A DNA stretch of 64,000 nucleotides, taken from the sequence record DRR723986_5625; one strand, given 5' to 3'. Numbering within the stretch: position 1 is the stretch's first letter; every line of letters begins with the position of its first letter. Below the pieces are notes generated by a model. That model saw only the letters and a program-made list of their open reading frames with translations, searched no databases and was not told the DNA's origin. Below are positions 29,112 to 43,976 of the stretch, piece by piece. The translations under genes were made by a program, and so were the position numbers.

Positions 29112-32100
29112 ATGAAGAGCATTCCATTCTACGCCGGGATACTCCTGTCCCTCGTTTCACTTCAGTCGTTTGCGGCGAGCTTGCACCTCCAGGTGTTTCT
29201 TGACGAGGCGCCGCTGAAAGGCGTAACCGTCTCGCTGGATGATTCGCCGTTAGGGCGCACAGACGAGCGCGGTGGCGCCTCTGCAAGTATTACCGCAGGC
29301 AGCCATGTACTTACTCTTACTGACGATGACGTCGCTTTTCCGGTTACGTTTGATAGCGCTGTAGACGAAGACGTAGAGATCAGCGTGACCTTCACCTCGC
29401 GAGACGGCGTCGAGCCAGTGGTCAGCGTGGGTAAATTCGCTGCAGGTGATGACAGCGCTACCGGCTATATCACGGGCCAGGTAAGCAACACCCTGGGAGC
29501 GCCGATCGCCGGTGCAAAGGTAATCGTCGATGACGTCGGCCTGTCGACTCTGACGGATGCGGATGGTGTGTTTGTCCTGGAGGTTCCGCGCGGCTTGCAC
29601 AATGTGAAGGTGGTGGTGACGGGCTATAACAGCGTGGTTCTCAGTGAGATCCGTGTGCTGGCTGGTCTTGGTGTCTCCACGGCGGTGAAACTGTACCCCG
29701 CTGACAGCGGTCCGGAGACAGTCGCCCTGCCATCGACCCAGATCGAGGAAGTCGTGGTGCTGGGGGTGTTCAAAGCGACCGAAGATGCGGCGGGAATGGA
29801 ACGCTTCGCCACCTCGATCACCAACGCGATCGACATCGAGATGCTGGAACGATTCGGTGACAGCGATGTCGCCGCAGCCCTTAACCGGGTGGTTGGCGTG
29901 GCGGTTACAGACAGCAAGTATGCAACGGTTCGCGGCCTCGACGGGCGGTATATCTCCGCCACCCTGAACGGCTTGCTGATGCCCAGCACCGACCCGCAGC
30001 GGCGGGATGTGCAGCTTGACCTGTTCCCAACCAATATTCTCGGTGGTATCGAGATCCAGAAGTCCTACAGTCCGGATCAGCTGGCAACGACGACCGGTGG
30101 CTCGATCAAGATTCTCACCAAGGGGCTGCCGGACGAGCGCATTCACAAGCTGTCCGCCTCAACTGGCTACAATTTCGATTTCACCGGTGATGATGTCATC
30201 AGCCACCGCAGCAGCAACACGGAATGGCTCGGTTTTGACGCCGGCCTGCGCCAGCTGCCCAACTCGGTTGTTAACGCCACTAACGGCGGCACCTCGCTGA
30301 CGGTCTGCGACCCGGCGATCGACCCGGTGCGCTGTACCTCTCAGCTCGATGCCGCAGCGCTGGCAGTGCAGTTTCAGGATGATTACAACGTCGGTGACAA
30401 GACCGCTCTGCCTCCGGTAGGCCTGTCATGGGCCTTCGGTGACCGCCTGCCCGCAGGTGACGGCGAGTGGGGTTACTACGCCGCCCTGGATTACGACTAC
30501 GACTGGTCCGACCGCGGTCAGGCCGAGCTGAGCAATCCGCTGGAAACCAGCGGAACCTACCAGCGTTCAGAGGAAACCGTATCGATCAACGGTTACTTTG
30601 TGGCGGGTTACGAGTACGGCGTGGCCAACGAAGTGCTGAGCAAAACCAGCATCCTGCGCGCCTCCGCCGACACGACTCGTCTCGAGGAGGGCATCGAGCA
30701 GCGGGAAGACAGCGCTATCACCTCGGCCATCCTGCAATACGTGGAGCGCCAGTTCTTCGCCCAGGCCTTCACCGGGCATAATGAGTTCGAGTTCGAAAAC
30801 TCCACCCATGAACTGGACTGGCGCCTGGCCTATTCCCGGACCGACCGCGAGGAACCCGACCGTCGCCAGTACACCTACTTCAACAACAACCTCTCGACGT
30901 CAGCCTTTGAGCGCCGCTGGTCAGACCTGACCGAAGACAGCTACGACATCGTGGTCGACTATGCGATCCCGCTGCAGTGGGGCGAATACAACACCACCGA
31001 GTTCAAGGCCGGAGTGCTGTGGTCTGACAAGGAGCGTGAAGTTGAGCTGTTCCGCTTCGGTATCCGCCAGGGTGATTTCCGCGATGTCTCGCTCGGTATC
31101 GACCAGGATCTGGAGAAAGACATTCTGCCGTACCAGAACTTCGTGGTGGATCGTTTCCGCCTGGCGGCAAACACAACCGATACTGATTCCTATAACTCGA
31201 CCGAGGAAATCCAGGCCTATTACCTGAACACCAATACGGACCTGGGTGATGCCTGGACCTTCGGGCTGGGCGCACGCTTCGAGGACTTTTCCCAGGTGTT
31301 GGAATATCCGAACGAGGCTTCGGCTTCCAACCAGCTGGATTTCGATGACTGGTACCCCGCGGCCAGCGTCACCTGGCGGCCCGCCGAAGCTTGGCAGATT
31401 CGCGCCGGCTACAGTGAGACAGTCTCCTATCCCGGCCTGATCGAGCGCTCCGAATCCTTATCCTATGACCCGGATACCGATGACCCGATCTTCGGTAACC
31501 CCGACCTTGTTCCATCGACGATAGATAATATCGATGCCCGGGTTGAATACTATTTCAGCGATACTGAAAGCGTTTCGCTGGCGTTCTTTGCCAAGGACAT
31601 CACCAATCCGGTAGAGCGCGCGATTCCTGATGCCTCGGGCTCGGCCGCTCGCGGTATCACTTTCCGTAACCAGGACTCCGCCGACCTGTTTGGTGTCGAA
31701 CTGGATGCCAATATTAACGTTCTCGATGAGGCGGACTACCTGTTGTTCGTCGCCGGTAACGTGTCCTATATCGACTCTGAGGTCGAACTCTCCGAGGATT
31801 CCATCCGCCTGGAAGGAGAGGCTGCCAACGGACGTCAGCTGCAGGGTCAGTCCGAGTGGCTGGCCAACCTGCAGGTCGGCTTCGACCACTATCCGTCGGA
31901 GCAGAAGTTCACGTTCCTGGTCAACTGGTTCGATGATCGCATCTTCCGGATTGCCCGCGGTGCCCAGACTGGTCCGGAGATCGAGTCCGGTCGCATCATC
32001 ATCGACCTGACCTATGAAAAACGCTTCTCAGATTCCCTCACGCTTGAAATGCAGGTTAAGAACCTGCTCAACGAGGAAGTGGAATATGAGCAGAACAGCG

Positions 32101-32165
32101 GGGTTATTGAAAGCTACCAGACGGGCACCGAGTTCGGTATCAGTCTCAACTATGAGTTCCTCTGA
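29112..32165 (+). CDS. TonB-dependent receptor with N-terminal carboxypeptidase-regulatory-like extension
   Basis: Signal peptide, N-terminal ITGQV...PIAGAKV...TDADGVF domain, EEVVVLG TonB-box-like segment, plug VRGLDGRY and LDLFP, GNPDL, KNLLN and terminal LNYEFL. Confidence 0.93.
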   Translation: MKSIPFYAGILLSLVSLQSFAASLHLQVFLDEAPLKGVTVSLDDSPLGRTDERGGASASITAGSHVLTLTDDDVAFPVTFDSAVDEDVEISVTFTSRDGVEPVVSVGKFAAGDDSATGYITGQVSNTLGAPIAGAKVIVDDVGLSTLTDADGVFVLEVPRGLHNVKVVVTGYNSVVLSEIRVLAGLGVSTAVKLYPADSGPETVALPSTQIEEVVVLGVFKATEDAAGMERFATSITNAIDIEMLERFGDSDVAAALNRVVGVAVTDSKYATVRGLDGRYISATLNGLLMPSTDPQRRDVQLDLFPTNILGGIEIQKSYSPDQLATTTGGSIKILTKGLPDERIHKLSASTGYNFDFTGDDVISHRSSNTEWLGFDAGLRQLPNSVVNATNGGTSLTVCDPAIDPVRCTSQLDAAALAVQFQDDYNVGDKTALPPVGLSWAFGDRLPAGDGEWGYYAALDYDYDWSDRGQAELSNPLETSGTYQRSEETVSINGYFVAGYEYGVANEVLSKTSILRASADTTRLEEGIEQREDSAITSAILQYVERQFFAQAFTGHNEFEFENSTHELDWRLAYSRTDREEPDRRQYTYFNNNLSTSAFERRWSDLTEDSYDIVVDYAIPLQWGEYNTTEFKAGVLWSDKEREVELFRFGIRQGDFRDVSLGIDQDLEKDILPYQNFVVDRFRLAANTTDTDSYNSTEEIQAYYLNTNTDLGDAWTFGLGARFEDFSQVLEYPNEASASNQLDFDDWYPAASVTWRPAEAWQIRAGYSETVSYPGLIERSESLSYDPDTDDPIFGNPDLVPSTIDNIDARVEYYFSDTESVSLAFFAKDITNPVERAIPDASGSAARGITFRNQDSADLFGVELDANINVLDEADYLLFVAGNVSYIDSEVELSEDSIRLEGEAANGRQLQGQSEWLANLQVGFDHYPSEQKFTFLVNWFDDRIFRIARGAQTGPEIESGRIIIDLTYEKRFSDSLTLEMQVKNLLNEEVEYEQNSGVIESYQTGTEFGISLNYEFL

Positions 32166-32276: not shown

Positions 32277-35123
32277 ATGTTACATAAAGAGCTCTTGATA
32301 GCATTCCTCCTCGTCTTTACCACCCTGGTGGGTTGTAGCGGCGATGAGGGTGACGACGTAACTATCATCGTGCCTCCGCCTGATGGTGGCGACGGCGACG
32401 GCGATGGTGGTGACGGTAGCGGAGACGGCGACGGCGGTGATGGAAGCGACGGTGACTGTGCTTCCGTTGTTGAGGCCTCGTTCGTCGCCTTCAATGACGA
32501 TTGCTCCGTCGGGACCCTGTCCGGACAGGTCGATCAGGACTACACCCTGACCAGCAACGTTGAATGGCGTCTGGACGGCACTGTTCAGGTCGGTGACGGC
32601 AACCGGACAGTTGCCGATGATGCAGACGTACAGGCTATCCGCGATGCGGGTGTTGTGCTGACCGTCGAAGCGGGCACTGATGTCCGTGCTTTCGACACCG
32701 GTACCCTGCTGGTAACCCGGGGTTCGAAGCTGATCGCTGATGGCTCCGCCTCATCACCGATTACTTTCAGTAGCCTCGATGATAACTACGATGGCCTCGG
32801 CGAGTGGGGCGGCCTGGTAATCCAGGGCTTTGCTCCCCAGTACGGCCAGGGCGGCACCGGCGCATGCTTCGGTAGCGGCACCGTGTGTAACGTGGAAGGC
32901 GAGGGCGGCACTGACGTCTCGGTATACGGTGGTAATGATCCGGCCGACAACAGCGGTGTGCTGCGCTACGTTCGTGTGGCTGAGGGCGGCCTGGTGGCTG
33001 GCCCGAACAACGAGATTAATGGCGTAACCCTGCAAGGGGTTGGCCATGCTACGACCATCGAGTACGTGCAGGTGCACAACAACCTGGATGACGGGGTCGA
33101 GTGGTTTGGCGGTACCGTGGACGCGAAGTACCTGGTACTGACCGGCAACGATGATGATGACATCGACTACGATGAGGGCTACCAGGGTAATATCCAGTAC
33201 GCCATCATCCAGAAGGCCAAGGACAAGGACACCCCGACGGGCTCCAACGATCCGCGCGCTATTGAGGCAAACTCCTCCGATGACGAGTATGTGCCGGAAA
33301 CCGAGGCGGTCATCGCCAACGTGACCATCATCGGCAGCGCGATCAACAACAACCCAGACTCTGATGCCGGCGCCCAGCCGGGCATGCGCCTGCGCGGTGC
33401 TCTGACCACCAGCATCTACAACACGTCGGTGGCTGAGTTTGATGTGGGTTGTATCCGTATCGATGATGCAGATATCAATGGCGACGGCAGCGTTATCGAG
33501 CAGTCCAATGTCACCCTGGTCAATGTGTTGAATGACTGCCAGGAAGGGATCTACAACAAGCGTGAGGCAGATTCAGCCGACAACGTCCAGTTGCTGACCC
33601 TGACCTACAGCAACACGCTGGCGATCAACGAGTCCGAGGCGGTGCTGTCGGCTGCGCCGACCATCGAAGCCGTCAATAATGGTTCCGGTTTCGTTTTCGA
33701 CCAGACGGCCTATGTCGGTGCGGTTGATCCCGCCGCGGCCAGCGGCTGGTGGGAAGGCTGGACCCTGCCTGACACCGTGGGCTCGTCCGAGGAAGTCAAG
33801 CCGGCTGATTTTGTCAGCTGTAATGCGGACGACAGCGTCTGCACCATCACTGGCACCATTGACGAGGACTATACCCTGATTCCTGGCGTTGAATGGCGTC
33901 TGTCAGGTGAGGTGCTGGTTGGTGCCGGCAACCGCACCGTGGCGGATGATGCTGACGTGCAGCTGATCCGTGACGAAGGCGTGACCCTGACGGTCCGTGC
34001 CGGCGTCAGCGTGAAGGCCTTTGACGACGGATCCCTGCTGGTGACCCGTGGCTCCAAGCTGATGGCGGTGGGTTCACCGGCCAGCCCGATCACCTTCTCC
34101 AGCCTCGATGACAACTTCGACGGTGAAGGCGAGTGGGGCGGTCTGGTGATCCAGGGCTTTGCGCCCCAGTACGGCCAGGGCGGAACCGGCCCATGCTTCG
34201 GCAGCGGCACTGTCTGTAACGTGGTGGGCGAGGGCGGTACTGTCGTGGGCAACTACGGTGGTAATGATCCTGCGGACAACAGCGGCATGCTGCGCTACGT
34301 TCGCATCGCTGAAGGCGGCCTGGTGGCCGGCCCGAACAACGAGATCAACGGTCTTACCCTGCAGGGCGTCGGCCATGGCACCCTGATCGAGTACATCCAG
34401 GTTCACGGTAACCTCGATGACGGGATCGAGTGGTTCGGCGGCACGGTCAACGTACGTTACGCGGTTCTGACCAGTAACGACGATGACGACATCGATTACG
34501 ATGAAGGCTACAAGGGCAATGTCCAGTACGCCATCATTCGTAAGAACCCGAACAAGGATGCACCTACCGGCTCCAACGACCCACGCGGCATCGAGGCGAA
34601 CTCCTCAGATGACGACTTCGTCCCGGAGACCGATGCTGTACTGGCCAACATCCTGGTCCTGGGTAGTGCGGTCAATAACAACCCGGATTCGGATGCCGGC
34701 GCCCAGCCGGGCATGCGTCTGCGCGGTGCCCTCACCACCACTGTTTACAACAGTGCGGTGAAGGACTTTGACACCGGTTGTATCCGCATCGACGACGCCG
34801 ATATCAATGGTGACGGTTCCGAGATTGTGGAATCCGACGTCGGTCTGGTGAACGTCCTCGGTGAGTGTACCGATGGCTTCTATGACAAGCGTGCGGCTGA
34901 CCTCGAAGACAATGCCGGTGAGGACACTAACACGGGTGTCACCATTGACGATGCCTACGCCCTGACGAATGCTGAAGCTTCCGTCGCGGCACCTGGTATT
35001 GAAGCTGTCGATAACGGTTCTGGCTTTACCTTCGACGACACCGACTTTATCGGCGCGGTAGAGCCCGGTACGTCGGCTGGCGACGCCTGGTGGGCTGACT
35101 GGACGATTCCGGGCACGCTCTGA
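32277..35123 (+). CDS. Large acidic lipoprotein made of two tandem ~443-aa beta-helix-like units
   Basis: Lipobox LVGC and a D/G-rich linker. Each unit has GEWGGLVI, DNSG.LRYVR, NEING.TLQGVG, DDG.EWFGGTV and DDDDIDYDEGY.G. Confidence 0.85.
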   Translation: MLHKELLIAFLLVFTTLVGCSGDEGDDVTIIVPPPDGGDGDGDGGDGSGDGDGGDGSDGDCASVVEASFVAFNDDCSVGTLSGQVDQDYTLTSNVEWRLDGTVQVGDGNRTVADDADVQAIRDAGVVLTVEAGTDVRAFDTGTLLVTRGSKLIADGSASSPITFSSLDDNYDGLGEWGGLVIQGFAPQYGQGGTGACFGSGTVCNVEGEGGTDVSVYGGNDPADNSGVLRYVRVAEGGLVAGPNNEINGVTLQGVGHATTIEYVQVHNNLDDGVEWFGGTVDAKYLVLTGNDDDDIDYDEGYQGNIQYAIIQKAKDKDTPTGSNDPRAIEANSSDDEYVPETEAVIANVTIIGSAINNNPDSDAGAQPGMRLRGALTTSIYNTSVAEFDVGCIRIDDADINGDGSVIEQSNVTLVNVLNDCQEGIYNKREADSADNVQLLTLTYSNTLAINESEAVLSAAPTIEAVNNGSGFVFDQTAYVGAVDPAAASGWWEGWTLPDTVGSSEEVKPADFVSCNADDSVCTITGTIDEDYTLIPGVEWRLSGEVLVGAGNRTVADDADVQLIRDEGVTLTVRAGVSVKAFDDGSLLVTRGSKLMAVGSPASPITFSSLDDNFDGEGEWGGLVIQGFAPQYGQGGTGPCFGSGTVCNVVGEGGTVVGNYGGNDPADNSGMLRYVRIAEGGLVAGPNNEINGLTLQGVGHGTLIEYIQVHGNLDDGIEWFGGTVNVRYAVLTSNDDDDIDYDEGYKGNVQYAIIRKNPNKDAPTGSNDPRGIEANSSDDDFVPETDAVLANILVLGSAVNNNPDSDAGAQPGMRLRGALTTTVYNSAVKDFDTGCIRIDDADINGDGSEIVESDVGLVNVLGECTDGFYDKRAADLEDNAGEDTNTGVTIDDAYALTNAEASVAAPGIEAVDNGSGFTFDDTDFIGAVEPGTSAGDAWWADWTIPGTL
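32475..35120 (+). repeat. Intragenic tandem duplication, period about 1329 bp
   Basis: Unit 1 starts ASFV at 32475 and unit 2 starts ADFV at 33804. Long identical peptide blocks are shared, e.g. NNNPDSDAGAQPGMRLRGALTT. Confidence 0.93.
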
Positions 35124-37051: not shown

Positions 37052-37531
37052 CTAAAACCGGTAGCCCACCCACAGGCCGACGCCGTGAGACAGGCCAATG
37101 ACAATTGTGCCGACCAGCAGGTGCTCCGCCACCACCGGCAGCGCAGGAACATCCTGCAGGGTGGCCAGGCGCCAGCTCAGCAGTACCAGTAGCAGGGCGC
37201 CCCAGGCCAGGGCGGCAACTGTCGCCGTTTGCAGGGGCAGGAACCAGAAGGGCAGGGCGAAGGACGCCGCCACGATGAGCTTGGCAAGGAAGGTGGCAAT
37301 CGTCGCCGTCCATACGCGCTCGGTTGTTGCATCTGGCGAAGACTCTTCAGAGACGTGAATCCCCAGCGCGTCGGACATTGAATCGGCAACGGCTATAACC
37401 AGAATGCCGCCCATCACGGCCTCTAACGAACCGGTACCCGCCGCCAGCCCAACCAGCAACCCGCAGGTGGTGATGACCCCTGACGTGGTACCGAAAAACA
37501 GGCCTACCCTGATTCCGTCTGCGCTTGCCAT
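37052..37531 (-). CDS. VIT1/CCC1-like membrane protein
   Basis: FG..SGVITT.GL..G and IAVADSMSDALGIHVSEES, with about five TM segments. Confidence 0.7.
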   Translation of the reverse strand: MASADGIRVGLFFGTTSGVITTCGLLVGLAAGTGSLEAVMGGILVIAVADSMSDALGIHVSEESSPDATTERVWTATIATFLAKLIVAASFALPFWFLPLQTATVAALAWGALLLVLLSWRLATLQDVPALPVVAEHLLVGTIVIGLSHGVGLWVGYRF

Positions 37532-37550: not shown

Positions 37551-38648
37551 TCAGCCCCGGTAAACCCGCTGCCAGTTCGCGTGGATCCGGCGCCAGATAT
37601 CGCCGTCCTTGCGGCTTATCTCGGTCTCGAAATAGTGGTTCAGTCGCTTCAGGTCTGACAGCTTGTCTTTGACCGCAGCGCCGATGAGGAAGTCTATGAG
37701 GTCCTCGGAGGACATCGCGCCGGCGCGATAGTAGTAGGCGAAAACACCCATCGCGTGGGCCACTGACACCGCCTCAGCGGTGGACATCACCGCGCCGGCC
37801 AGTCGGTCTGTGCTTCGGCCGTCCAGGGTCTGGCCGTTGCGCAGCTCGTGGAAGATCGTGGTCAGAGCGCTGATGATGGTGGGATCCGGCGCCACATCAA
37901 CGCCCGCCGCCTGCAGCAGCCTGGCCGACTCGCGCATGACGACGGCAATTTCGTCTTCCACAGCGCTGATCGGGCGGATGGTTTCGAAATTCATTCGCCG
38001 CTTGAGTGCCGCGCTCATCACGTTCACACCTTCATCGTAAGTGTTCGAGGTGCCGATGATGTTGAAGCCGTCGCGGGCAAACAGGGTGGAGTCCTCCGGC
38101 GGTAACTCCGGGACCGAAGCTGCCCGCTCCGACAGCAGCGACAGCAGGGCGTCCTGCAGGGCCGGCGCGGTGCGGGCAATCTCCTCGAAGCGGACCAGCT
38201 TGCCATCCCGCATGGCGCGGTAGATGGGGCCGGGTATCAAGGCGTCCAGGCAGGGGCCGCGTTGTTCCAGCAGCGCCCGATTCCAGCTGTACACCAGTTG
38301 TTGTACGGTCTCGATCGCGCCACCCTGCACAACCAGCGTGGAGTCACCGCAGATCGCCGCGGCCAGTAGTTCCGACAGCCAGGATTTCGCCGTACCGGGC
38401 TCACCGACCAGCATCGCACCGCGCTGGGTTGCCAGGGATATGATTACCCGGGTCACAATCTGGCGCGGGGCGACAAACTTGGGTTCCAGGTCCAGCTCCG
38501 GGTCGCCGAGGACAAATTTTTCTACTGCCAGCGGGGATAGCAGCCAGCCGGGGGGGCGGGCTGCGGTATCCGTCTCCTGCAAGCGCGCCAGTTCATCGGC
38601 AAACACCATTTCTGCCGGAAGTCGCTGGCGGTGGGTTAGGTCGTTCAT
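37551..38648 (-). CDS. AAA+ ATPase, MoxR YehL-like subfamily
   Basis: PAE...ADEL..L, PPGW.LSP, Walker A GEPGTAKSWLSE.LAAAI.GDS, Walker B VRFEEI, MSAALKRRMNF and VMSTAEAV. Confidence 0.85.
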   Translation of the reverse strand: MNDLTHRQRLPAEMVFADELARLQETDTAARPPGWLLSPLAVEKFVLGDPELDLEPKFVAPRQIVTRVIISLATQRGAMLVGEPGTAKSWLSELLAAAICGDSTLVVQGGAIETVQQLVYSWNRALLEQRGPCLDALIPGPIYRAMRDGKLVRFEEIARTAPALQDALLSLLSERAASVPELPPEDSTLFARDGFNIIGTSNTYDEGVNVMSAALKRRMNFETIRPISAVEDEIAVVMRESARLLQAAGVDVAPDPTIISALTTIFHELRNGQTLDGRSTDRLAGAVMSTAEAVSVAHAMGVFAYYYRAGAMSSEDLIDFLIGAAVKDKLSDLKRLNHYFETEISRKDGDIWRRIHANWQRVYRG

Positions 38649-40943
38649 CTACCGGCCCCCTCGTTTTTCCGGCGCCATGCGCTCGACCGGCAATACCCGG
38701 GGCAGTTCGGACAGGGGGATGGCTCCGCTGATGACATGGTTCAAGGCGCTGTCGCGCATGGTAACCAGGCCGGAGTCCAGGGCGATGGCGCGCAGTCTGG
38801 CGATGGGCAACTGCTCGGCGATCGCATCGCGGATCTCGGCGTTCACCTGCATGAATTCCACCACCGCAACCCGACCGCGGGTACCCCGGCCGCCGCAATC
38901 CTCGCAGCCACTGCCCTCATAGCAGCGGAAGTTGTCGGGTACGCCATCGGGGAACAGCTCGGCGGTAATGCGCTCGTCCGCCAGCGCCGGCTTTCGACAT
39001 TGCTCGCAGATGCGTTTGGCCAGCTTCTGGGCAATCACCCCGCTCAGTTCGCTGGCGATGGAGTTGGGGTGGACGCCGAGGTCAAAGATGCGCTGCAGTG
39101 CATCGACTGCGTCGTTGCTGTGCAGCGTGGACAGCACCACGTGCCCGGTCTGGGAGGCGCGAATAGCCTCCTGCGCGGTTTCCTGGTCGCGGATCTCCCC
39201 GACCAGGATCACGTCCGGGTCCTGACGGACGAAAGAGCGCATACCGTCGGCAAAATTAAAGCCGATCTCCGGTCGGGTCCGGGTTTGCTGGATGCCCTCC
39301 ATGGAATACTCGATCGGATCCTCGATGGTAATGACCTTGCGCCGGCCGTCCTCGGCAAGGCCTGCCAGGCCAGCGTACAAGGTGGTGGTTTTACCGGAAC
39401 CCGTGGGTCCGACGACCAGTACCAGCCCGGATGGATTGTCCAGCAGGCGCCGGTAATGCCGGGCGACGGCCACGTCCATGCCCAGGTCCTCGATTGCCAC
39501 CACATTACCGCTTTGCGGCAGCAGGCGAATCACCACGGCCTCGCCATGCAGGGAGGGCTGGATCTGGATACGCAGGTCATAGCCCGCGCCTCCGGCCCGA
39601 AGCTGGGAGCGCCCGCCCTGCGGCAGTCGCTTTTCCGCGATATCCATATCGCCGCGGATCTTGATCACATTGACCAGGCCGCGAGCCTCCCTCGGGGTCA
39701 GGTTGTAGTGATTCAGATCGTGCAGGTCACCGTCCACGCGCAGGCGGATCCGGGTGCGATCCTGGTAGGCCTCAATATGCAGGTCACTTGCGCCCTCGCT
39801 GATCGCATCAAGCAGCAGCGCATCAAGCAGGGTGATGAGGTGTGCCTCGATCCGGGTTCTCTCGCGGGACAGCAGGTCAGGGCGATGATCTTCCGTCGGT
39901 TCCGATTGCTTGGCCAACAGGTGCGCGTCACCCTGCAATGACAGCTCCACAGTGGTCCACAGGCGCTTGAAGTCGTTTGGCGTGACCAGAATCTTCTGCA
40001 CCCTGTCGTAGGGATACATGTGATAGATATCGTCCACCTTGCTGTCGGGATCATCGGTGGCGATATTCAGGCAGTGGCCTTTAACCTCCAGAGGCACCAG
40101 GTGGTTGCTGTCGAGAAAGCTGCGGGAAAACCCCTCCATCAGCTGCGGTTGCACAGTGGTCAACAGGTCATCCACCGGTGCGAAGGGCATCCCGTTTTCC
40201 TCCGCGAGACGCCGGTAGAGGGTGGTGTCTTCCAGGTTTAGCTTGTCGCGCAGGATCTTGATCACCGGCTGGTGCTGCTGGCGCGCCTTGGCCCGCGCTT
40301 CTTCCAGCATGACCCGATCGACCATCCCCATGTCCAGCAGGGTCATGCCGGTATCCCGGGAGAAGTCCACCAGGGCCAGTTCCCGGCGCAGGGGCGCGCC
40401 CAGCTCACTCAGCTGGTAGCGGGTCAGCAGGTGTGTTTCATTTTCGCCCTGCTCCAGGGCGAGCAGTACCCCCTCTGGCGCAAGTTGCTCCAATAGCTCG
40501 GTCTTGTTGACCAGCCGCGGGCTGGATACCAGGATGCGATCAAAGGGCCCCATGTCCGGTGCCCCGTGGATGCCGTCCTGCTCGCGCAGGACCAGGTTGG
40601 CCAGGCCGAGCTTGTTGAACCGGTCCATGGCGCAGCTGGCGATGGCAGGGTTCTTCTCAATGGTGATGACCTGGCTGGCCAGTTTGCTCAGCAGTGCCGC
40701 CAGGTAACCGGCGCCGGTGCCGACCTGGAGCACGCGATGCTGCGGGTGCACGTCGGCGTGCCGGAGGATTTCCGAGACCGCGTTGGTCGGGGGGATGCTG
40801 CGACCGACGACCCGGGAGGGGTCGCCCATTTCGATAAAATGATCCCGGGGCAGGGACCGCATGACCTCGGTAATGCGCGCGGTATCTGGCACCGGTAATC
40901 CTGCCGCGCGATCGGTGCTGTCCTGTGTCCTGCCGTTGCTCAT
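38649..40943 (-). CDS. Fusion of PIMT-like methyltransferase, MshEN/T2SSE_N and PilB/GspE-family ATPase
   Basis: aa ~25-195: MRSLPRDHF, VLQVGTGAGYLAALLS, TIEK, DG..G, GPFDRI, LEQL..EG. C-terminus: ASDLHIE, RLRVDG, DIAEKRLPQGG, GPTGSGKTTTLY, TIEDPIE, RQDPDVILVGEIRD, TGHVVLSTLH and CEQC...CEDC. Confidence 0.9.
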   Translation of the reverse strand: MSNGRTQDSTDRAAGLPVPDTARITEVMRSLPRDHFIEMGDPSRVVGRSIPPTNAVSEILRHADVHPQHRVLQVGTGAGYLAALLSKLASQVITIEKNPAIASCAMDRFNKLGLANLVLREQDGIHGAPDMGPFDRILVSSPRLVNKTELLEQLAPEGVLLALEQGENETHLLTRYQLSELGAPLRRELALVDFSRDTGMTLLDMGMVDRVMLEEARAKARQQHQPVIKILRDKLNLEDTTLYRRLAEENGMPFAPVDDLLTTVQPQLMEGFSRSFLDSNHLVPLEVKGHCLNIATDDPDSKVDDIYHMYPYDRVQKILVTPNDFKRLWTTVELSLQGDAHLLAKQSEPTEDHRPDLLSRERTRIEAHLITLLDALLLDAISEGASDLHIEAYQDRTRIRLRVDGDLHDLNHYNLTPREARGLVNVIKIRGDMDIAEKRLPQGGRSQLRAGGAGYDLRIQIQPSLHGEAVVIRLLPQSGNVVAIEDLGMDVAVARHYRRLLDNPSGLVLVVGPTGSGKTTTLYAGLAGLAEDGRRKVITIEDPIEYSMEGIQQTRTRPEIGFNFADGMRSFVRQDPDVILVGEIRDQETAQEAIRASQTGHVVLSTLHSNDAVDALQRIFDLGVHPNSIASELSGVIAQKLAKRICEQCRKPALADERITAELFPDGVPDNFRCYEGSGCEDCGGRGTRGRVAVVEFMQVNAEIRDAIAEQLPIARLRAIALDSGLVTMRDSALNHVISGAIPLSELPRVLPVERMAPEKRGGR

Positions 40944-41011: not shown

Positions 41012-42292
41012 TCAGCTTTTGGGATGCACAATCACCGGTAGTCGCGTATAGCCATTGACGAAGCTGGACGGCGCGCGCTGCGGTTCGCCTATTACCTCGA
41101 TGCGGTCGAAGCGGGCCAGGACTTCCTCCCACAGCACGCGCAATTGCAGCTCGGCAAGCCGGTTGCCCATGCAGCGATGGATGCCAAACCCGAAGGACAG
41201 ATGGCGCCGCACGTTCTCCCGGTCGATGATGTAATCATCCGGGCGCTCGAAGACAGAATCATCCCGGTTACCCGAGGCGTACCACATCAGGACCTTGTCG
41301 CCGGCTTTGATCTTTTTGCCGCGCAATTCTGTGTCCACTTTCGCGGTGCGTCGCATATAGGCCAGGGGCGTTTGCCAGCGAATAGTCTCCGACACCATGC
41401 TCGGGATCAGTTCGGGCTTGGCCTTGAGCTTGGCGAATTCTGCGGGATTCTGGTGCAGGGCCAGGACACTGGCGGACATGGTATTGCGGGTGGTGTCATT
41501 GCCGCCGACGATCAGCAGGATCAGATTGCCGAGGTATTCGAACGGCTCCATTTCCTGGGTGGCCGAGCCGTGGGCCAGCATGGAGACAAAGTCCGTGCTT
41601 GGCGGTGCCTCGATCTTCTGGTTCCACAAAGTGGTGAAATATTGCAGGCATTCGATCAGCTCGGTGCGACGCTGCTCTTCAGAGTCGATGATGCCCATGC
41701 CGGGGATTGCGGTCGAAACATCCGACCAGCGAGTCAGCTTGCGCCGGTCCTCGTAGGGGAAATCAAACAAGGTGGCGAGCATTCGGGTGGTCAGCTCGAT
41801 CGACACGGTGTCGACCCAGTCGAATTCCTGCCCCAGCGGAAGACTGTCGAGGATATCTGCCGTGCGTTCGCGGATCAGCGGTTCAAAGTTCTTCAGGCTG
41901 GCGGGGCCGACAGCCGGGTTGACCACCTTGCGTTGCTCATCATGCTTGGGCGGGTCCATGGCGATGAACATGGGCAGGGTGAAATCGTCGTCCGGGTTGC
42001 GGATGGTGATTGCCGGCTCGGAGGAGTAGAGGTCCGGGCGGGTATCCACCGCCATGATGTCCTCGTAGCGGGTAACTGACCAGTAGGGCCCCAGTTGGTG
42101 CTCGGTGCAGTAATGCACAGGGTCCTCTTCACGCAGGCGTTTGAACCATAAATACTGCTTGCCAGCCTCGAACAGCAGGGGGTTGGCTACGTCGTAGGTT
42201 GCCAGCGGCTCCTGGTAGGGATCGCGGTTCACCTGATCGTAGTCAAGGATGATCTCGTCCAGGGAGGCTTGATTTTGGCTGATCGAAGTCAT
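41012..42292 (-). CDS. Cytochrome P450, CYP153-like
   Basis: MFIAMDPPKHD, LLIVGGNDTTRN, ETIRWQTPLAYMRR and heme motif HLSFGFGIHRCMG. Start at ATG 42292. Confidence 0.93.
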   Translation of the reverse strand: MTSISQNQASLDEIILDYDQVNRDPYQEPLATYDVANPLLFEAGKQYLWFKRLREEDPVHYCTEHQLGPYWSVTRYEDIMAVDTRPDLYSSEPAITIRNPDDDFTLPMFIAMDPPKHDEQRKVVNPAVGPASLKNFEPLIRERTADILDSLPLGQEFDWVDTVSIELTTRMLATLFDFPYEDRRKLTRWSDVSTAIPGMGIIDSEEQRRTELIECLQYFTTLWNQKIEAPPSTDFVSMLAHGSATQEMEPFEYLGNLILLIVGGNDTTRNTMSASVLALHQNPAEFAKLKAKPELIPSMVSETIRWQTPLAYMRRTAKVDTELRGKKIKAGDKVLMWYASGNRDDSVFERPDDYIIDRENVRRHLSFGFGIHRCMGNRLAELQLRVLWEEVLARFDRIEVIGEPQRAPSSFVNGYTRLPVIVHPKS

Positions 42293-42371
42293 GGCAGGGC
42301 CTTGTTTGCCTGATATTGTCATCAGTTTAGGAGAAACTGCGCTGTCACACCACTTACCGGATGCATTGTCC

Positions 42372-43976
42372 ATGCTGCTGATGATCGGCATCGGTCTGGC
42401 GTTGTTCCTTTTTGGCATGGCCCAGCTCGAAGCCGGTATCCGGGCGCTGGGCCTGCGTACCTTCCAGCGCTGGCTGTCCCGGTCTACCGCGTCCCCGATC
42501 GCCAGTGCCGGTACCGGGATCGCCGTCACCGCCCTGCTGCAGAGCAGTTCCCTGGTCAGTCTGCTGGTCCTGGCGTTCGCCAGTGCCGGCGTGTTGCCCC
42601 TGTACAACGCGATCGGCATCCTGCTGGGTGCGAACCTGGGCACCACCTTCACCGGCTGGGTGGTCGCCACCATCGGCTTCAAGCTTTCGCTGCAGGACCT
42701 GGCGCTGCCGGCCCTGGGCCTTGGCGCCTTGCTCCAGCTCATCCATTGGCAGGGCGAGCGTCTCGCGGCGCTGGGCAGGATCCTGTTCGGCCTTGGGCTG
42801 ATTGTTTTTGGCCTCGATATCATGAAAGAGACCATGGCTGGGGTAGCGGGTGGCTGGGACCTGGGCGCGCTGTCGGGCTATGGTGTGTGGGTGTACTTTT
42901 TGGCCGGGACGGCGATCGCGGCCCTGATCCAGTCCAGCTCTGCGACCATGATGCTGACCCTTGCCGCCCTGAACAGCGGCCTGCTGACCCTGCCGGCAGC
43001 GGCGGCCATCGTTATTGGTGCGGACCTGGGAACCACCAGTACCACGGTGCTCGCCAGCATCGGCGGCAGCGTGGTGAAGCGCCAGCTGGCCCTGGCGCAC
43101 CTGGTATTCAACCTGCTCGTCGACATAGCGGCCCTGCTGGTGCTGTTGCCGCTGCTGCCGCAACTGCAGGCTGCGCTGGGCCTTGCCGACCCGCTGTATA
43201 TGCTGGTGGTGTTCCACAGCCTGTTCAACCTGCTGGGACTGGCGGTGTTCCTGCCCCTGCTGAAGCCCTTTGCGGGCTGGATAGCGGGGCGCTTCGCCGC
43301 GCCGCCGTCTGCCGCTGTGGCCCTTGCTGGTCAGCCAACGGCGGTTCCGTCCGCTGCCCTGGTTGCCATTGGCCGTGCGCTTACCGAGCTGCGTGCCGAT
43401 ACGCTGGCGCTGGTGCTGCACTATTTTCACCTGCAACCGGACCAGCTCTCGCTGGCCCCGGCTACGGCAGCACCGCTGCTGGCTGCGGCGGCTGAGCGGC
43501 TCAGTCCCGAGGAGCGCTATAGCCGGATCAAGGCAACGGAGTCGGCGCTGTTTGCCTACTCCTTCGACCTGCAGGCGGAGAAGCTCGACAAGGGGCAGGT
43601 GGATAGTCTCGCCATCGTGTCCCGGGAAGCGCGGGCACTCGCCTACAGTGCGAAGACACTCAAGGATATTCGCCGGGATATCGTCACCATGCGACACAGT
43701 GAGCTCGCGCCGGTTAAGGCCCTGTATGAATCGCACCGGGACTTTTTGCGCGACGTCCTCGCACGTTACCTGGACGGGTCGGGTCGGGCAGGCGCGATAC
43801 AGACGCCGTCAGTTGAGCTGCTGGCGGATAACGAATCACATTACCGCGAGGTCAACGCGGTGGTAAGCGAGCTGGCGGCAGCGGATACCGTTTCGGGAAC
43901 GGAACTGTCCACCCTGTTGAACGTCAATCGGGACATTCACCACGCGGTGAAAGATCTGTTGATCGCCCTCGGGTGA
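42372..43976 (+). CDS. Na/Pi cotransporter family protein
   Basis: Duplicated QSSS motifs (TALLQSSS, ALIQSSSA) and GANLGTT/GADLGTT, plus a soluble helical C-terminus. Start uncertain (ATG 42372 or CTG 42342). Confidence 0.88.
   Translation: MLLMIGIGLALFLFGMAQLEAGIRALGLRTFQRWLSRSTASPIASAGTGIAVTALLQSSSLVSLLVLAFASAGVLPLYNAIGILLGANLGTTFTGWVVATIGFKLSLQDLALPALGLGALLQLIHWQGERLAALGRILFGLGLIVFGLDIMKETMAGVAGGWDLGALSGYGVWVYFLAGTAIAALIQSSSATMMLTLAALNSGLLTLPAAAAIVIGADLGTTSTTVLASIGGSVVKRQLALAHLVFNLLVDIAALLVLLPLLPQLQAALGLADPLYMLVVFHSLFNLLGLAVFLPLLKPFAGWIAGRFAAPPSAAVALAGQPTAVPSAALVAIGRALTELRADTLALVLHYFHLQPDQLSLAPATAAPLLAAAAERLSPEERYSRIKATESALFAYSFDLQAEKLDKGQVDSLAIVSREARALAYSAKTLKDIRRDIVTMRHSELAPVKALYESHRDFLRDVLARYLDGSGRAGAIQTPSVELLADNESHYREVNAVVSELAAADTVSGTELSTLLNVNRDIHHAVKDLLIALG

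Follow-up and report, generated by a model that had tools for sequence, protein, structure and literature searches.

A PCMT-like domain fused to a PilB/GspE-type ATPase and coupled to a MoxR-class ATPase gene, away from filament genes

What is understood of ATPases of the PilB/GspE type concerns almost exclusively their role in driving type IV filament machines, just as MoxR-type ATPases are seen almost always as chaperones dependent on a VWA adaptor; the N1 domain of PilB/GspE docks to PilM/GspL-type partners. Here we analyse a gene in a 64,000-nucleotide stretch of DNA from sequence record DRR723986_5625 (the window) whose product joins a domain resembling protein-L-isoaspartate O-methyltransferase (PIMT; Pfam family PCMT) to an ATPase of the PilB/GspE type, together with the adjoining gene for a MoxR-class ATPase of the AAA_5 family. 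Studies of related domains provide the points of reference. According to the available text of PMC8275801, the site at which human PIMT receives isoaspartate (isoAsp) is formed by residues 57–59 (T-I-S) and 212–216. The PCMT-like domain of human PCMTD1 binds S-adenosylmethionine (AdoMet) through motif I and the post-I motif, has no methyltransferase activity and holds its clients only in the presence of AdoMet, in so far as the available portion of PMC12590147 describes it. MshEN receptors of cyclic di-GMP (c-di-GMP) carry two tandem 24-residue motifs (PMC5013675, accessible text). The anatomy of the present locus is settled: the fusion is real and widespread, its ATPase represents a PilB/GspE clade of its own, and it is coupled to a MoxR-class ATPase with no filament genes alongside.

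The fusion gene is a single unbroken open reading frame (ORF) of 764 amino acids (aa), running from an ATG start to a TAG stop. A preliminary description of this DNA had placed the ORF correctly (Table 1) and left out that it lies on the minus strand. The same description read a PCMT domain, an MshEN/T2SSE_N region and a full extension ATPase on one chain, and all three lie above Pfam threshold: PCMT (PF01135) at residues 21–162 (E 3.4e-20; 73.2 bits against a gathering cut-off of 20.3), MshEN at residues 251–329 (E 2.3e-11) and T2SSE (PF00437) at residues 367–747 (E 2.1e-108; 362.7 bits against 24.9). The possibility it had raised – that the N-terminus might not match PCMT – is thus set aside by the first of these matches. 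Since the NCBIfam PilB model covers residues 202–750, the protein amounts to a complete PilB-like ATPase with approximately 200 additional N-terminal residues; the final PCMT strand passes straight into the first MshEN helix, without a linker. An AlphaFold model of the chain has a mean predicted local distance difference test (pLDDT) value of 73.6, with low values at residues 1–19, 38–49, 338–365 and 542–561. Residues 1–19 are moreover unconserved and lack a confident fold, and for this reason the true start codon is uncertain.

That the chain might be an assembly chimera, or the product of a stop codon lost in this genome only, was a further doubt voiced in the preliminary description. We consider it vanishingly improbable: we found no point in its support, and the same single-ORF architecture is present in both sets of 120 protein clusters listed by our searches, and in more than 240 clusters altogether. 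Among the matches listed, all 120 relatives with 67–82% identity to the fusion – their source names being Halioglobus, Seongchinamella, Pseudohalioglobus and Halieaceae – carry both PF01135 and PF00437. Residues 1–250, compared with 1.8 billion representatives, recovered more distant full-length fusions, and a profile built from four distant fusions found 398 proteins at E ≤ 1e-50, with the same two domains in all 120 listed; source names among the distant fusions include Polyangiaceae, Polyangiales, Nannocystaceae, Bradymonadaceae, Persicimonas caeni, Marinobacter and Elongatibacter. The architecture, junction included, is kept in hundreds of proteins from two phyla, taking in Halieaceae, Marinobacter and Myxococcota/Bradymonadales, and the fusion is present in 13 further genomes and, without its partner gene, in one more.

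Evidence of a different kind comes from metagenome contigs of other runs. The PCMT/MshEN junction (near position 40361) is bridged by X1 record 6 (40174–40421) and X2 record 15 (40304–40490), and the junction between the stop codon and the ATG of the next gene by X1 record 3 (38442–39442); neither indels nor joints were seen at either junction in these contigs, whose runs possibly include the source sample. In addition, the ratio of nonsynonymous to synonymous substitution rates (dN/dS) is 0.05–0.20 for the PCMT part, against 0.03–0.09 for the C-terminal domain (CTD) of the ATPase (four pairs, dS < 1), which indicates purifying selection on the PCMT part. In three loci (L099:6910–9191, L024 and L025) the fusion appears as two overlapping ORFs or as a broken frame, probably through frameshift errors, a real split being possible.

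Within a class-level sample of 400 Gammaproteobacteria the fusion was seen, among the best 150 matches listed, in a single genome: the relative G001, which holds locus L006 and whose record title is Pseudohalioglobus sediminis. In the other 320 matching genomes the matches were shorter and no stronger than those of an ordinary Pcm (best E 2.7e-21, again among the best 150 listed). No fusion was found on plasmids, none of the 282 matching PLSDB records spanning 80% or more of the first 350 aa, and the ESM Atlas returned generic AAA_5 and PCMT clusters and nothing beyond. A literature search, with subscription journals and supplements outside its coverage, found no description of the fusion or of the gene pair; within that coverage the earlier statement that no PIMT–ATPase fusion has been characterised stands. 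Public records name these proteins either "PilB" or "protein-L-isoaspartate O-methyltransferase", and neither name fits, because the equivalog cut-offs of both PilB and PIMT are missed.

The fusion does not stand alone. It had been called an orphan ATPase, and this is correct in so far as no genes of a pilus or type II secretion system (T2SS) adjoin it; left unmentioned was a conserved MoxR-class AAA_5 gene to which it is coupled. The ATG of this gene abuts the TAG of the fusion, and a Shine–Dalgarno-like run, GAGGGGG, lies just upstream of that ATG, inside the 3′ end of the fusion; to judge by this arrangement, fusion and AAA_5 constitute a translationally coupled two-gene module. The product of the partner gene matches AAA_5 (PF07728) at E 6e-28, with 98 bits against a cut-off of 22; across 36 sequences it shows conservation of Walker A, of Walker B (FEEI) and of the sensor and Arg residues, and the best Foldseek matches of its model (pLDDT 84.7) are NorQ (E 2e-8) and CbbQ2. 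Assignment to the NCBIfam families of MadB or GvpN was rejected, the matches being weak and far under the cut-offs.

Conservation of the pair is evident from the arrangement of genes in relatives. The AAA_5 gene lies directly 3′ of the fusion in 22 of 25 Halieaceae-type loci; the remaining three contigs end at the end of the fusion or within 82 bases of it, such that the gene is present in every locus with room for it (22/22). It is the sole conserved neighbour in 19 loci, with flanks that differ between lineages, and the pair is kept in two metagenome loci – one with a 4-base overlap – in which the PCMT part is 32% identical. Among 301 genomes of the order to which G001 belongs, an AAA_5 homologue at E ≤ 1e-40 occurs in 19, and the 14 homologues that are 58% or more identical all directly follow a PCMT-MshEN-T2SSE fusion of 751–802 aa. 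The reverse search of the same genomes found an ATPase of the fusion clade in 15, adjoined by AAA_5 in 14.

A mark of the pairing is also present in the fusion itself. All partner-linked fusions end in LPxxERMAPExRG, a tail that is absent from the canonical PilB, GspE, GspE2 and TfpB of G001. Over 42 loci, tail and adjoining AAA_5 occur together in all 36 in which both are readable, and both are missing from two members of the clade that lack the partner (L100 and L220); the other four loci come from assemblies that are cut or broken in frame. From this perfect co-occurrence we infer that ERMAPExRG is the probable contact to the MoxR-type partner. A complex prediction with the PCMT part, the ATPase core and AAA_5 gave a score of 0.00; it was made without controls and is counted neither for nor against binding.

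The origin of the partner can be read from its more distant relatives. Five AAA_5 homologues with 35–47% identity, alignable from end to end, N-terminal extension included, have no T2SSE neighbour, and the four of them that were examined lie in operons of the order SWIM – DUF5691 – AAA_5 – DUF5682 – VWA_CoxE. These five-gene operons are found at L216–L219 (for example L219:395–7883), with a DUF4132/HEAT protein taking the place of the first two genes in L217; a full-text literature search for DUF5682, with subscription journals and supplements outside its coverage, found no paper. Because its nearest relatives outside the module sit in VWA_CoxE operons, the partner comes from a MoxR lineage that is normally accompanied by a VWA protein. 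The fusion stands where the VWA partner set would be in the operons of these relatives, and no VWA-domain gene adjoins the partner, either in the window or in any related locus that was examined.

The ATPase half of the fusion is complete and of the PilB/GspE type. Its motifs are invariant or at least 90% conserved among 47 aligned family members: Walker A GPTGSGK(T/S) at residues 512–519, the Asp box (E541, D542), Walker B (D575, D577, E583), the His box (T599–H601, H608) and a zinc-type tetra-Cys site (C646, C649, C680, C683). The model of the core superimposes on solved PilB, PilF and GspE cores with template modelling (TM) scores of 0.86–0.91, root mean square deviations of 2.4–3.1 Å and 39–41% identity (Foldseek). 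The chain falls below the equivalog cut-offs of both PilB (TIGR02538; 442.1 bits against 675.65) and GspE (TIGR02533; 423.6 bits against 630.25). Counts of paralogues and platform genes were taken from the relatives G001–G003. In G001 the canonical ATPases lie above the cut-offs: a PilB (843.7 bits) with PilC, a TfpB (924 bits) and a GspE (675.8 bits) with GspF and GspD adjoining, alongside another GspE-like ATPase accompanied by a GspF-like gene.

The preliminary description had called for an ATPase tree against PilB and GspE. Such trees place the fusions outside both, and outside TfpB, with support of 100: in a FastTree analysis of the core (105 rows) 11 fusions together with L100 are set apart (Shimodaira–Hasegawa, SH, support 100; stem 0.82), and in a quick IQ-TREE analysis of 68 rows – after removal of 11 rows with many gaps or unusual composition and of alternate generic rows – the same is true of 24 fusions together with L100 (SH-like approximate likelihood ratio test, 100). 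On this phylogeny the fusion ATPase belongs to an uncharacterised clade that stands apart among the PilB/GspE-type, presumably hexameric, ATPases. The clade also includes members without PCMT, namely L100 (584 aa; L100:6888–9185) and L102–L105 (among them L102:2–1568 and L104:2–2381). These follow a receiver-domain gene in L100 and MerR_2-type ORFs in L102 and L104, which suggests that the N-terminal input varies within the ATPase clade; where L100, L102 and L104 are readable they have neither an AAA_5 neighbour nor an ERMAPE tail. In the MshEN region, a scan of 24 fusions for a relaxed form of the tandem 24-residue RLGxx..Q c-di-GMP motif, run without a positive control, found two copies in none and one copy in one.

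A critical issue is the state of the PCMT-like domain. Its best PDB sequence matches are all PIMTs (E 5e-16 to 6e-5), pLDDT is approximately 80–90 across residues 60–195, and the AdoMet motifs are in place: motif I VGTGAGY (residues 74–80), post-I TIEK, motif II DG and motif III PFDRI. The segment for isoAsp is altered. Compared with nine canonical Pcm sequences, the fusion family is approximately nine residues short in the AYxDxALPI loop and has G(R/H)SIPPT where Pcm has GQTISQP, the canonical PIMT Ser aligning with P51; an L-INS-i alignment also puts VDFSRD where Pcm has VRFVPL, a result that depends on the alignment, because its column set is unstable in a larger one of 253 members. This agrees with the earlier observation of kept AdoMet motifs and a shortened isoAsp segment. 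The T-I-S of the PIMT substrate site thus reads S-I-P in the fusion, and the C-terminal segment (human 212–216, bacterial VRFVPL) differs too. Replacement of both substrate-site segments weakens the case for canonical repair, and the domain failed the PIMT equivalog test with 107.1 bits against 188 (PRK00312) and 68.7 bits against 159 (TIGR00080).

Residue counts over 253 fusion N-termini (rows shorter than 700 aa having been dropped) bear this out for the family as a whole. The column of the canonical Ser is Pro in 228, with Ser outside the five commonest residues, and the loop G(R/H)SIPP is conserved in its own right (S in 203, I in 158 and P in 228). The glycines of motif I are kept in 251, 252 and 253 of the sequences and the post-I acid in 252; the Asp of motif III is found in 239 and that of motif II in 194. 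These counts point to a conserved cofactor site combined with a repair site that has been replaced by another conserved loop, and from them we infer a domain that would still bind AdoMet or S-adenosylhomocysteine (AdoHcy) but would lack canonical isoAsp recognition.

With regard to filament genes, no pilin, platform or secretin gene was found among the ORFs of at least 150 aa at 25–55 kb and the eight flanking genes scanned with Pfam, the window not having been scanned whole; the earlier claim that such genes are missing holds for this set. Nor does a pilin, platform, secretin or prepilin peptidase gene adjoin the module in any locus examined. The platform (T2SSF) genes of G001, G002 and G003 – three, four and three, respectively – all lie beside canonical ATPases and none beside the fusion; with no T2SSF gene adjoining the fusion in the window or in related loci, it also fails the genomic-pairing test for PilB. 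The suggestion in the preliminary description that the methyltransferase-like part might control an alternative pilus or T2SS motor therefore receives no support from gene context.

Table 1. Position of the fusion gene, its parts and the partner gene in the window, and of the flagellar-lineage loci in their own contigs
Feature	Position	Strand	Basis
Fusion ORF: PCMT-like + MshEN/N1 + N2 + CTD + tail	38649..40943 (including stop codon)	-	ORF, Pfam, NCBIfam
PIMT-derived Rossmann domain, residues 21-195	40359..40883	-	Pfam PCMT, alignments to PDB PIMTs, pLDDT, dN/dS
Family-specific loop GRSIPPT, residues 47-53, in place of PIMT GQTISQP	40785..40805	-	PDB and Pcm alignments
N1 / MshEN-fold domain, residues 196-345	39909..40358	-	Pfam MshEN 251-329; PilB model from residue 202
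Low-confidence linker, residues 346-365	39849..39908	-	pLDDT <50 over 338-365; poor conservation
PilB/GspE-type ATPase core: N2 366-495, CTD 496-750	38694..39848	-	Pfam T2SSE, Foldseek, motif residues
Walker A	39387-39410	-	Within ATPase core
Tetra-Cys site	38895-39008	-	Within ATPase core
Clade-specific C-terminal tail LPVERMAPEKRGGR, residues 751-764	38652..38693	-	Comparison with G001 ATPases; 42 loci
Partner gene, 365-aa MoxR-class AAA+ ATPase (AAA_5)	37551..38648	-	Pfam, junction, model fold, synteny
Flagellar-lineage loci	L099:5935-6423; L211:6435-7433; L214:1154-2196; L215:6381-7331; L210:6421-7227; L212:6372-7187; L213:1361-2167		

What the module does is a matter of interpretation. 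Our data lead us to favour, at roughly even chances, a cytoplasmic module of two ATPases in which the PCMT-like domain would regulate or bind clients in dependence on AdoMet, as opposed to an enzyme of repair or a motor dedicated to pili. The PilB-type and MoxR-type ATPases would work as one cytoplasmic machine, not dedicated to a pilus or T2SS, with the ERMAPExRG tail of the fusion touching the partner; the PIMT-like domain would hold AdoMet or AdoHcy without canonical isoAsp recognition and serve as the regulatory or client-binding part, in a way that resembles the catalytically dead PCMT substrate receptor of PCMTD1. A more specific form of this proposal – a PilB-type hexamer docked by its tail to a MoxR-type hexamer, gated by AdoMet or AdoHcy, that remodels or modifies a client and has no role in pili, secretion or DNA uptake – is possible, though we would sooner doubt it than defend it.

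Several observations weigh against the two-ATPase proposal. The fusion of G528 (locus L220) has no AAA_5 neighbour, so the ATPase can exist without the partner. One gammaproteobacterial lineage has the pair directly after a CheW-DUF2802 or ParA-like gene, at the end of a flagellar/chemotaxis cluster, a position that could point to an envelope or polar machine. The conserved S-I-P-P loop would fit a working active site as well as a regulatory surface, and AdoMet binding may not be universal, given that the motif II Asp is present in 194 of 253 fusions and eroded in some lineages. Lastly, the fusion has kept the N1 (MshEN-fold) domain, and it could conceivably work on a pilus or T2SS platform already present in the cell.

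The first of the alternatives is that the domain is an active methyltransferase that has been re-targeted to a new carboxyl or other acceptor, the candidates being the MoxR-type partner, its own tail or a client of the ATPases, such that modification would be coupled to ATP-driven remodelling. The near-universal motif I and post-I residues (at least 251 of 253), the conserved replacement loop and the purifying selection on the PCMT domain are all as this explanation would have them, and PCMT-family NCBIfams with non-repair substrates do exist – those of the ATP-grasp peptide maturase and FxLD systems, which the fusion matches weakly (66 and 50 bits). Against it, L101, P0159 and L220 have lost the motif II Asp along with other motif residues, though these genes are intact, and divergence has been much more rapid in the PCMT part (29% identity to L101) than in the ATPase core (75%). 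We judge an active enzyme unlikely, while taking the idea seriously. Less probable again is an alternative or auxiliary motor that shares the platform of an existing type IV pilus, mannose-sensitive haemagglutinin (MSHA) pilus or T2SS, with the PCMT-like domain as metabolic input and AAA_5 as assembly chaperone. Such a motor would account for a PilB-type core with all catalytic motifs and 39–41% identity to solved cores, as it would for the retained N1 domain; relatives have several pilus and T2SS systems on which it could draw, and in seven loci the module adjoins a flagellar/chemotaxis cluster. It is at odds with the lack of adjoining pilin, platform, secretin and prepilin peptidase genes in the loci examined, with the fact that every platform gene in G001–G003 is already paired with a canonical ATPase, with the long and fully supported branch that separates the clade from PilB, GspE and TfpB, and with flanks that vary between lineages.

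It is harder still to credit a damage-recognition machine, in which the PCMT-like domain would bind isoaspartyl proteins, leaving them unmethylated, for the ATPases to remodel or dispose of; we hold this to be very improbable. Both segments of the PIMT isoAsp site are replaced, the pre-motif loop is approximately nine residues shorter, and G001 already has a canonical Pcm (263 bits against a cut-off of 188). PilB-type ATPases are, to our knowledge, not known as unfoldases. What recommends the idea is that the AdoMet motifs are kept in the fusions and that PCMTD1 is, in the available text of PMC12590147, just such a dead, AdoMet-dependent isoAsp receptor fused to another machine. The two-ATPase module with a regulatory or client-binding PCMT-like domain is the reading to which we return.

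The surroundings of the module are variable. In the flagellar lineage (Table 1) the pair directly follows other genes on its strand (the gap is 27 bases in L211): CheW and a DUF2802 gene, with FliK beyond, in L211, L214 and L215, CheW in L099, and a ParA/MinD-like gene in L210, L212 and L213, with ccmA- or ccmB-type genes downstream in L213 and L212. The site of the pair near CheW and ParA-like genes may reflect a link to polar, flagellar or chemosensory machinery, or may be a mere insertion site. A GGDEF gene is found divergently upstream of the partner-less fusion (L220:732–1880, minus strand) and a NIT-HAMP-PAS-GGDEF-EAL gene adjoins the pair in L206 (5719–8436, minus strand); two loci establish no pattern.

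In the window, neither immediate neighbour is taken as part of the module. The P450 gene upstream (41012–42835, minus strand) is present in 11 of the 25 loci; approximately 405–460 of the 607 residues in its listed frame, and no more, match in relatives, so that the true start is probably a good way into that frame. The VIT1-like gene downstream (37052–37531, minus strand), on the same strand as the pair and encoding, by weak match, a membrane protein, has no match in any of the 25. Assignment to a defence system by PADLOC was likewise rejected, the matches being weak and generic: mad2 (49 bits) over the Rossmann part, and mad3 and mad8 over the P-loops. Elsewhere in the window, directly after a gene for a TonB-dependent receptor (29112–32165), is a 948-aa ORF (32277–35123, plus strand) that has no Pfam match. 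By eye it shows a hydrophobic N-terminal stretch and a Gly/Asp-rich run, and it contains an internal duplication of three collinear repeat blocks, 1329 bases apart and 71–80% identical.

The module brings together a PilB-type ATPase without filament genes and a MoxR-type ATPase without a VWA gene, in one coupled operon. The coupled pair spans Gammaproteobacteria, and the fusion alone is also recorded in Myxococcota and Bradymonadales. Were the docked two-hexamer machine to prove true, it would be the first PilB/GspE-family motor in bacteria to work apart from a type IV filament machine, and bacteria would have their own counterpart of the PCMTD1 design; were AdoMet or AdoHcy to gate the motor, the status of the methyl cycle would be tied to an ATP-driven process. 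Because cultured hosts are named – Halioglobus, Seongchinamella, Pseudohalioglobus, Marinobacter and Persicimonas – these questions are directly testable.

Comparison with known systems makes plain both what has been kept and what has changed. With PilB, GspE and MshE the fusion shares the succession of N1 (MshEN fold), N2 and CTD, together with Walker A and B, the Asp and His boxes and the tetra-Cys site; it differs in forming its own clade below all equivalog cut-offs, in its additional N-terminal PCMT-like domain and clade-specific tail, and in having a MoxR-class ATPase as neighbour and no adjoining platform, pilin or secretin gene. As regards the MshEN receptors of c-di-GMP, the Pfam match and, by eye, the hydrophobic pattern of two helical hairpins are retained, whereas the tandem motif was not found in the 24 fusions scanned without a positive control. 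The partner has the AAA_5 motifs and the fold of NorQ and CbbQ2, but it adjoins a PCMT–PilB-like fusion and no VWA gene, unlike the MoxR-class ATPases of the NorQ–NorD and CbbQ–CbbO systems. Its closest relatives outside the module, in the uncharacterised SWIM-DUF5691-AAA_5-DUF5682-VWA_CoxE operons, keep an entirely different set of partners, with no T2SSE or PCMT among them.

PIMT and Pcm (PF01135, TIGR00080, PRK00312) have in common with the fusion the Rossmann fold, motif I GxGxG, the post-I acid, motif II DG and motif III PFDxI. The fusion departs from them in the change of the T-I-S Ser to Pro, in a pre-motif loop approximately nine residues shorter, in the replacement of VRFVPL and in the attached ATPase, and the relative G001 has a separate, canonical Pcm. 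A final parallel is with human PCMTD1, a PCMT-like domain with a SOCS box that acts, as the available text on it relates, as a substrate receptor of a cullin-RING ligase. There too motif I and the post-I motif are kept and the PCMT domain is fused to a recruiting module; PCMTD1 belongs to another kingdom, has a SOCS box in place of an ATPase and, on the same partial account, keeps the isoAsp recognition whose segments are replaced in the fusion. The likeness is an analogy of design, with homology in evidence only for the PCMT fold.

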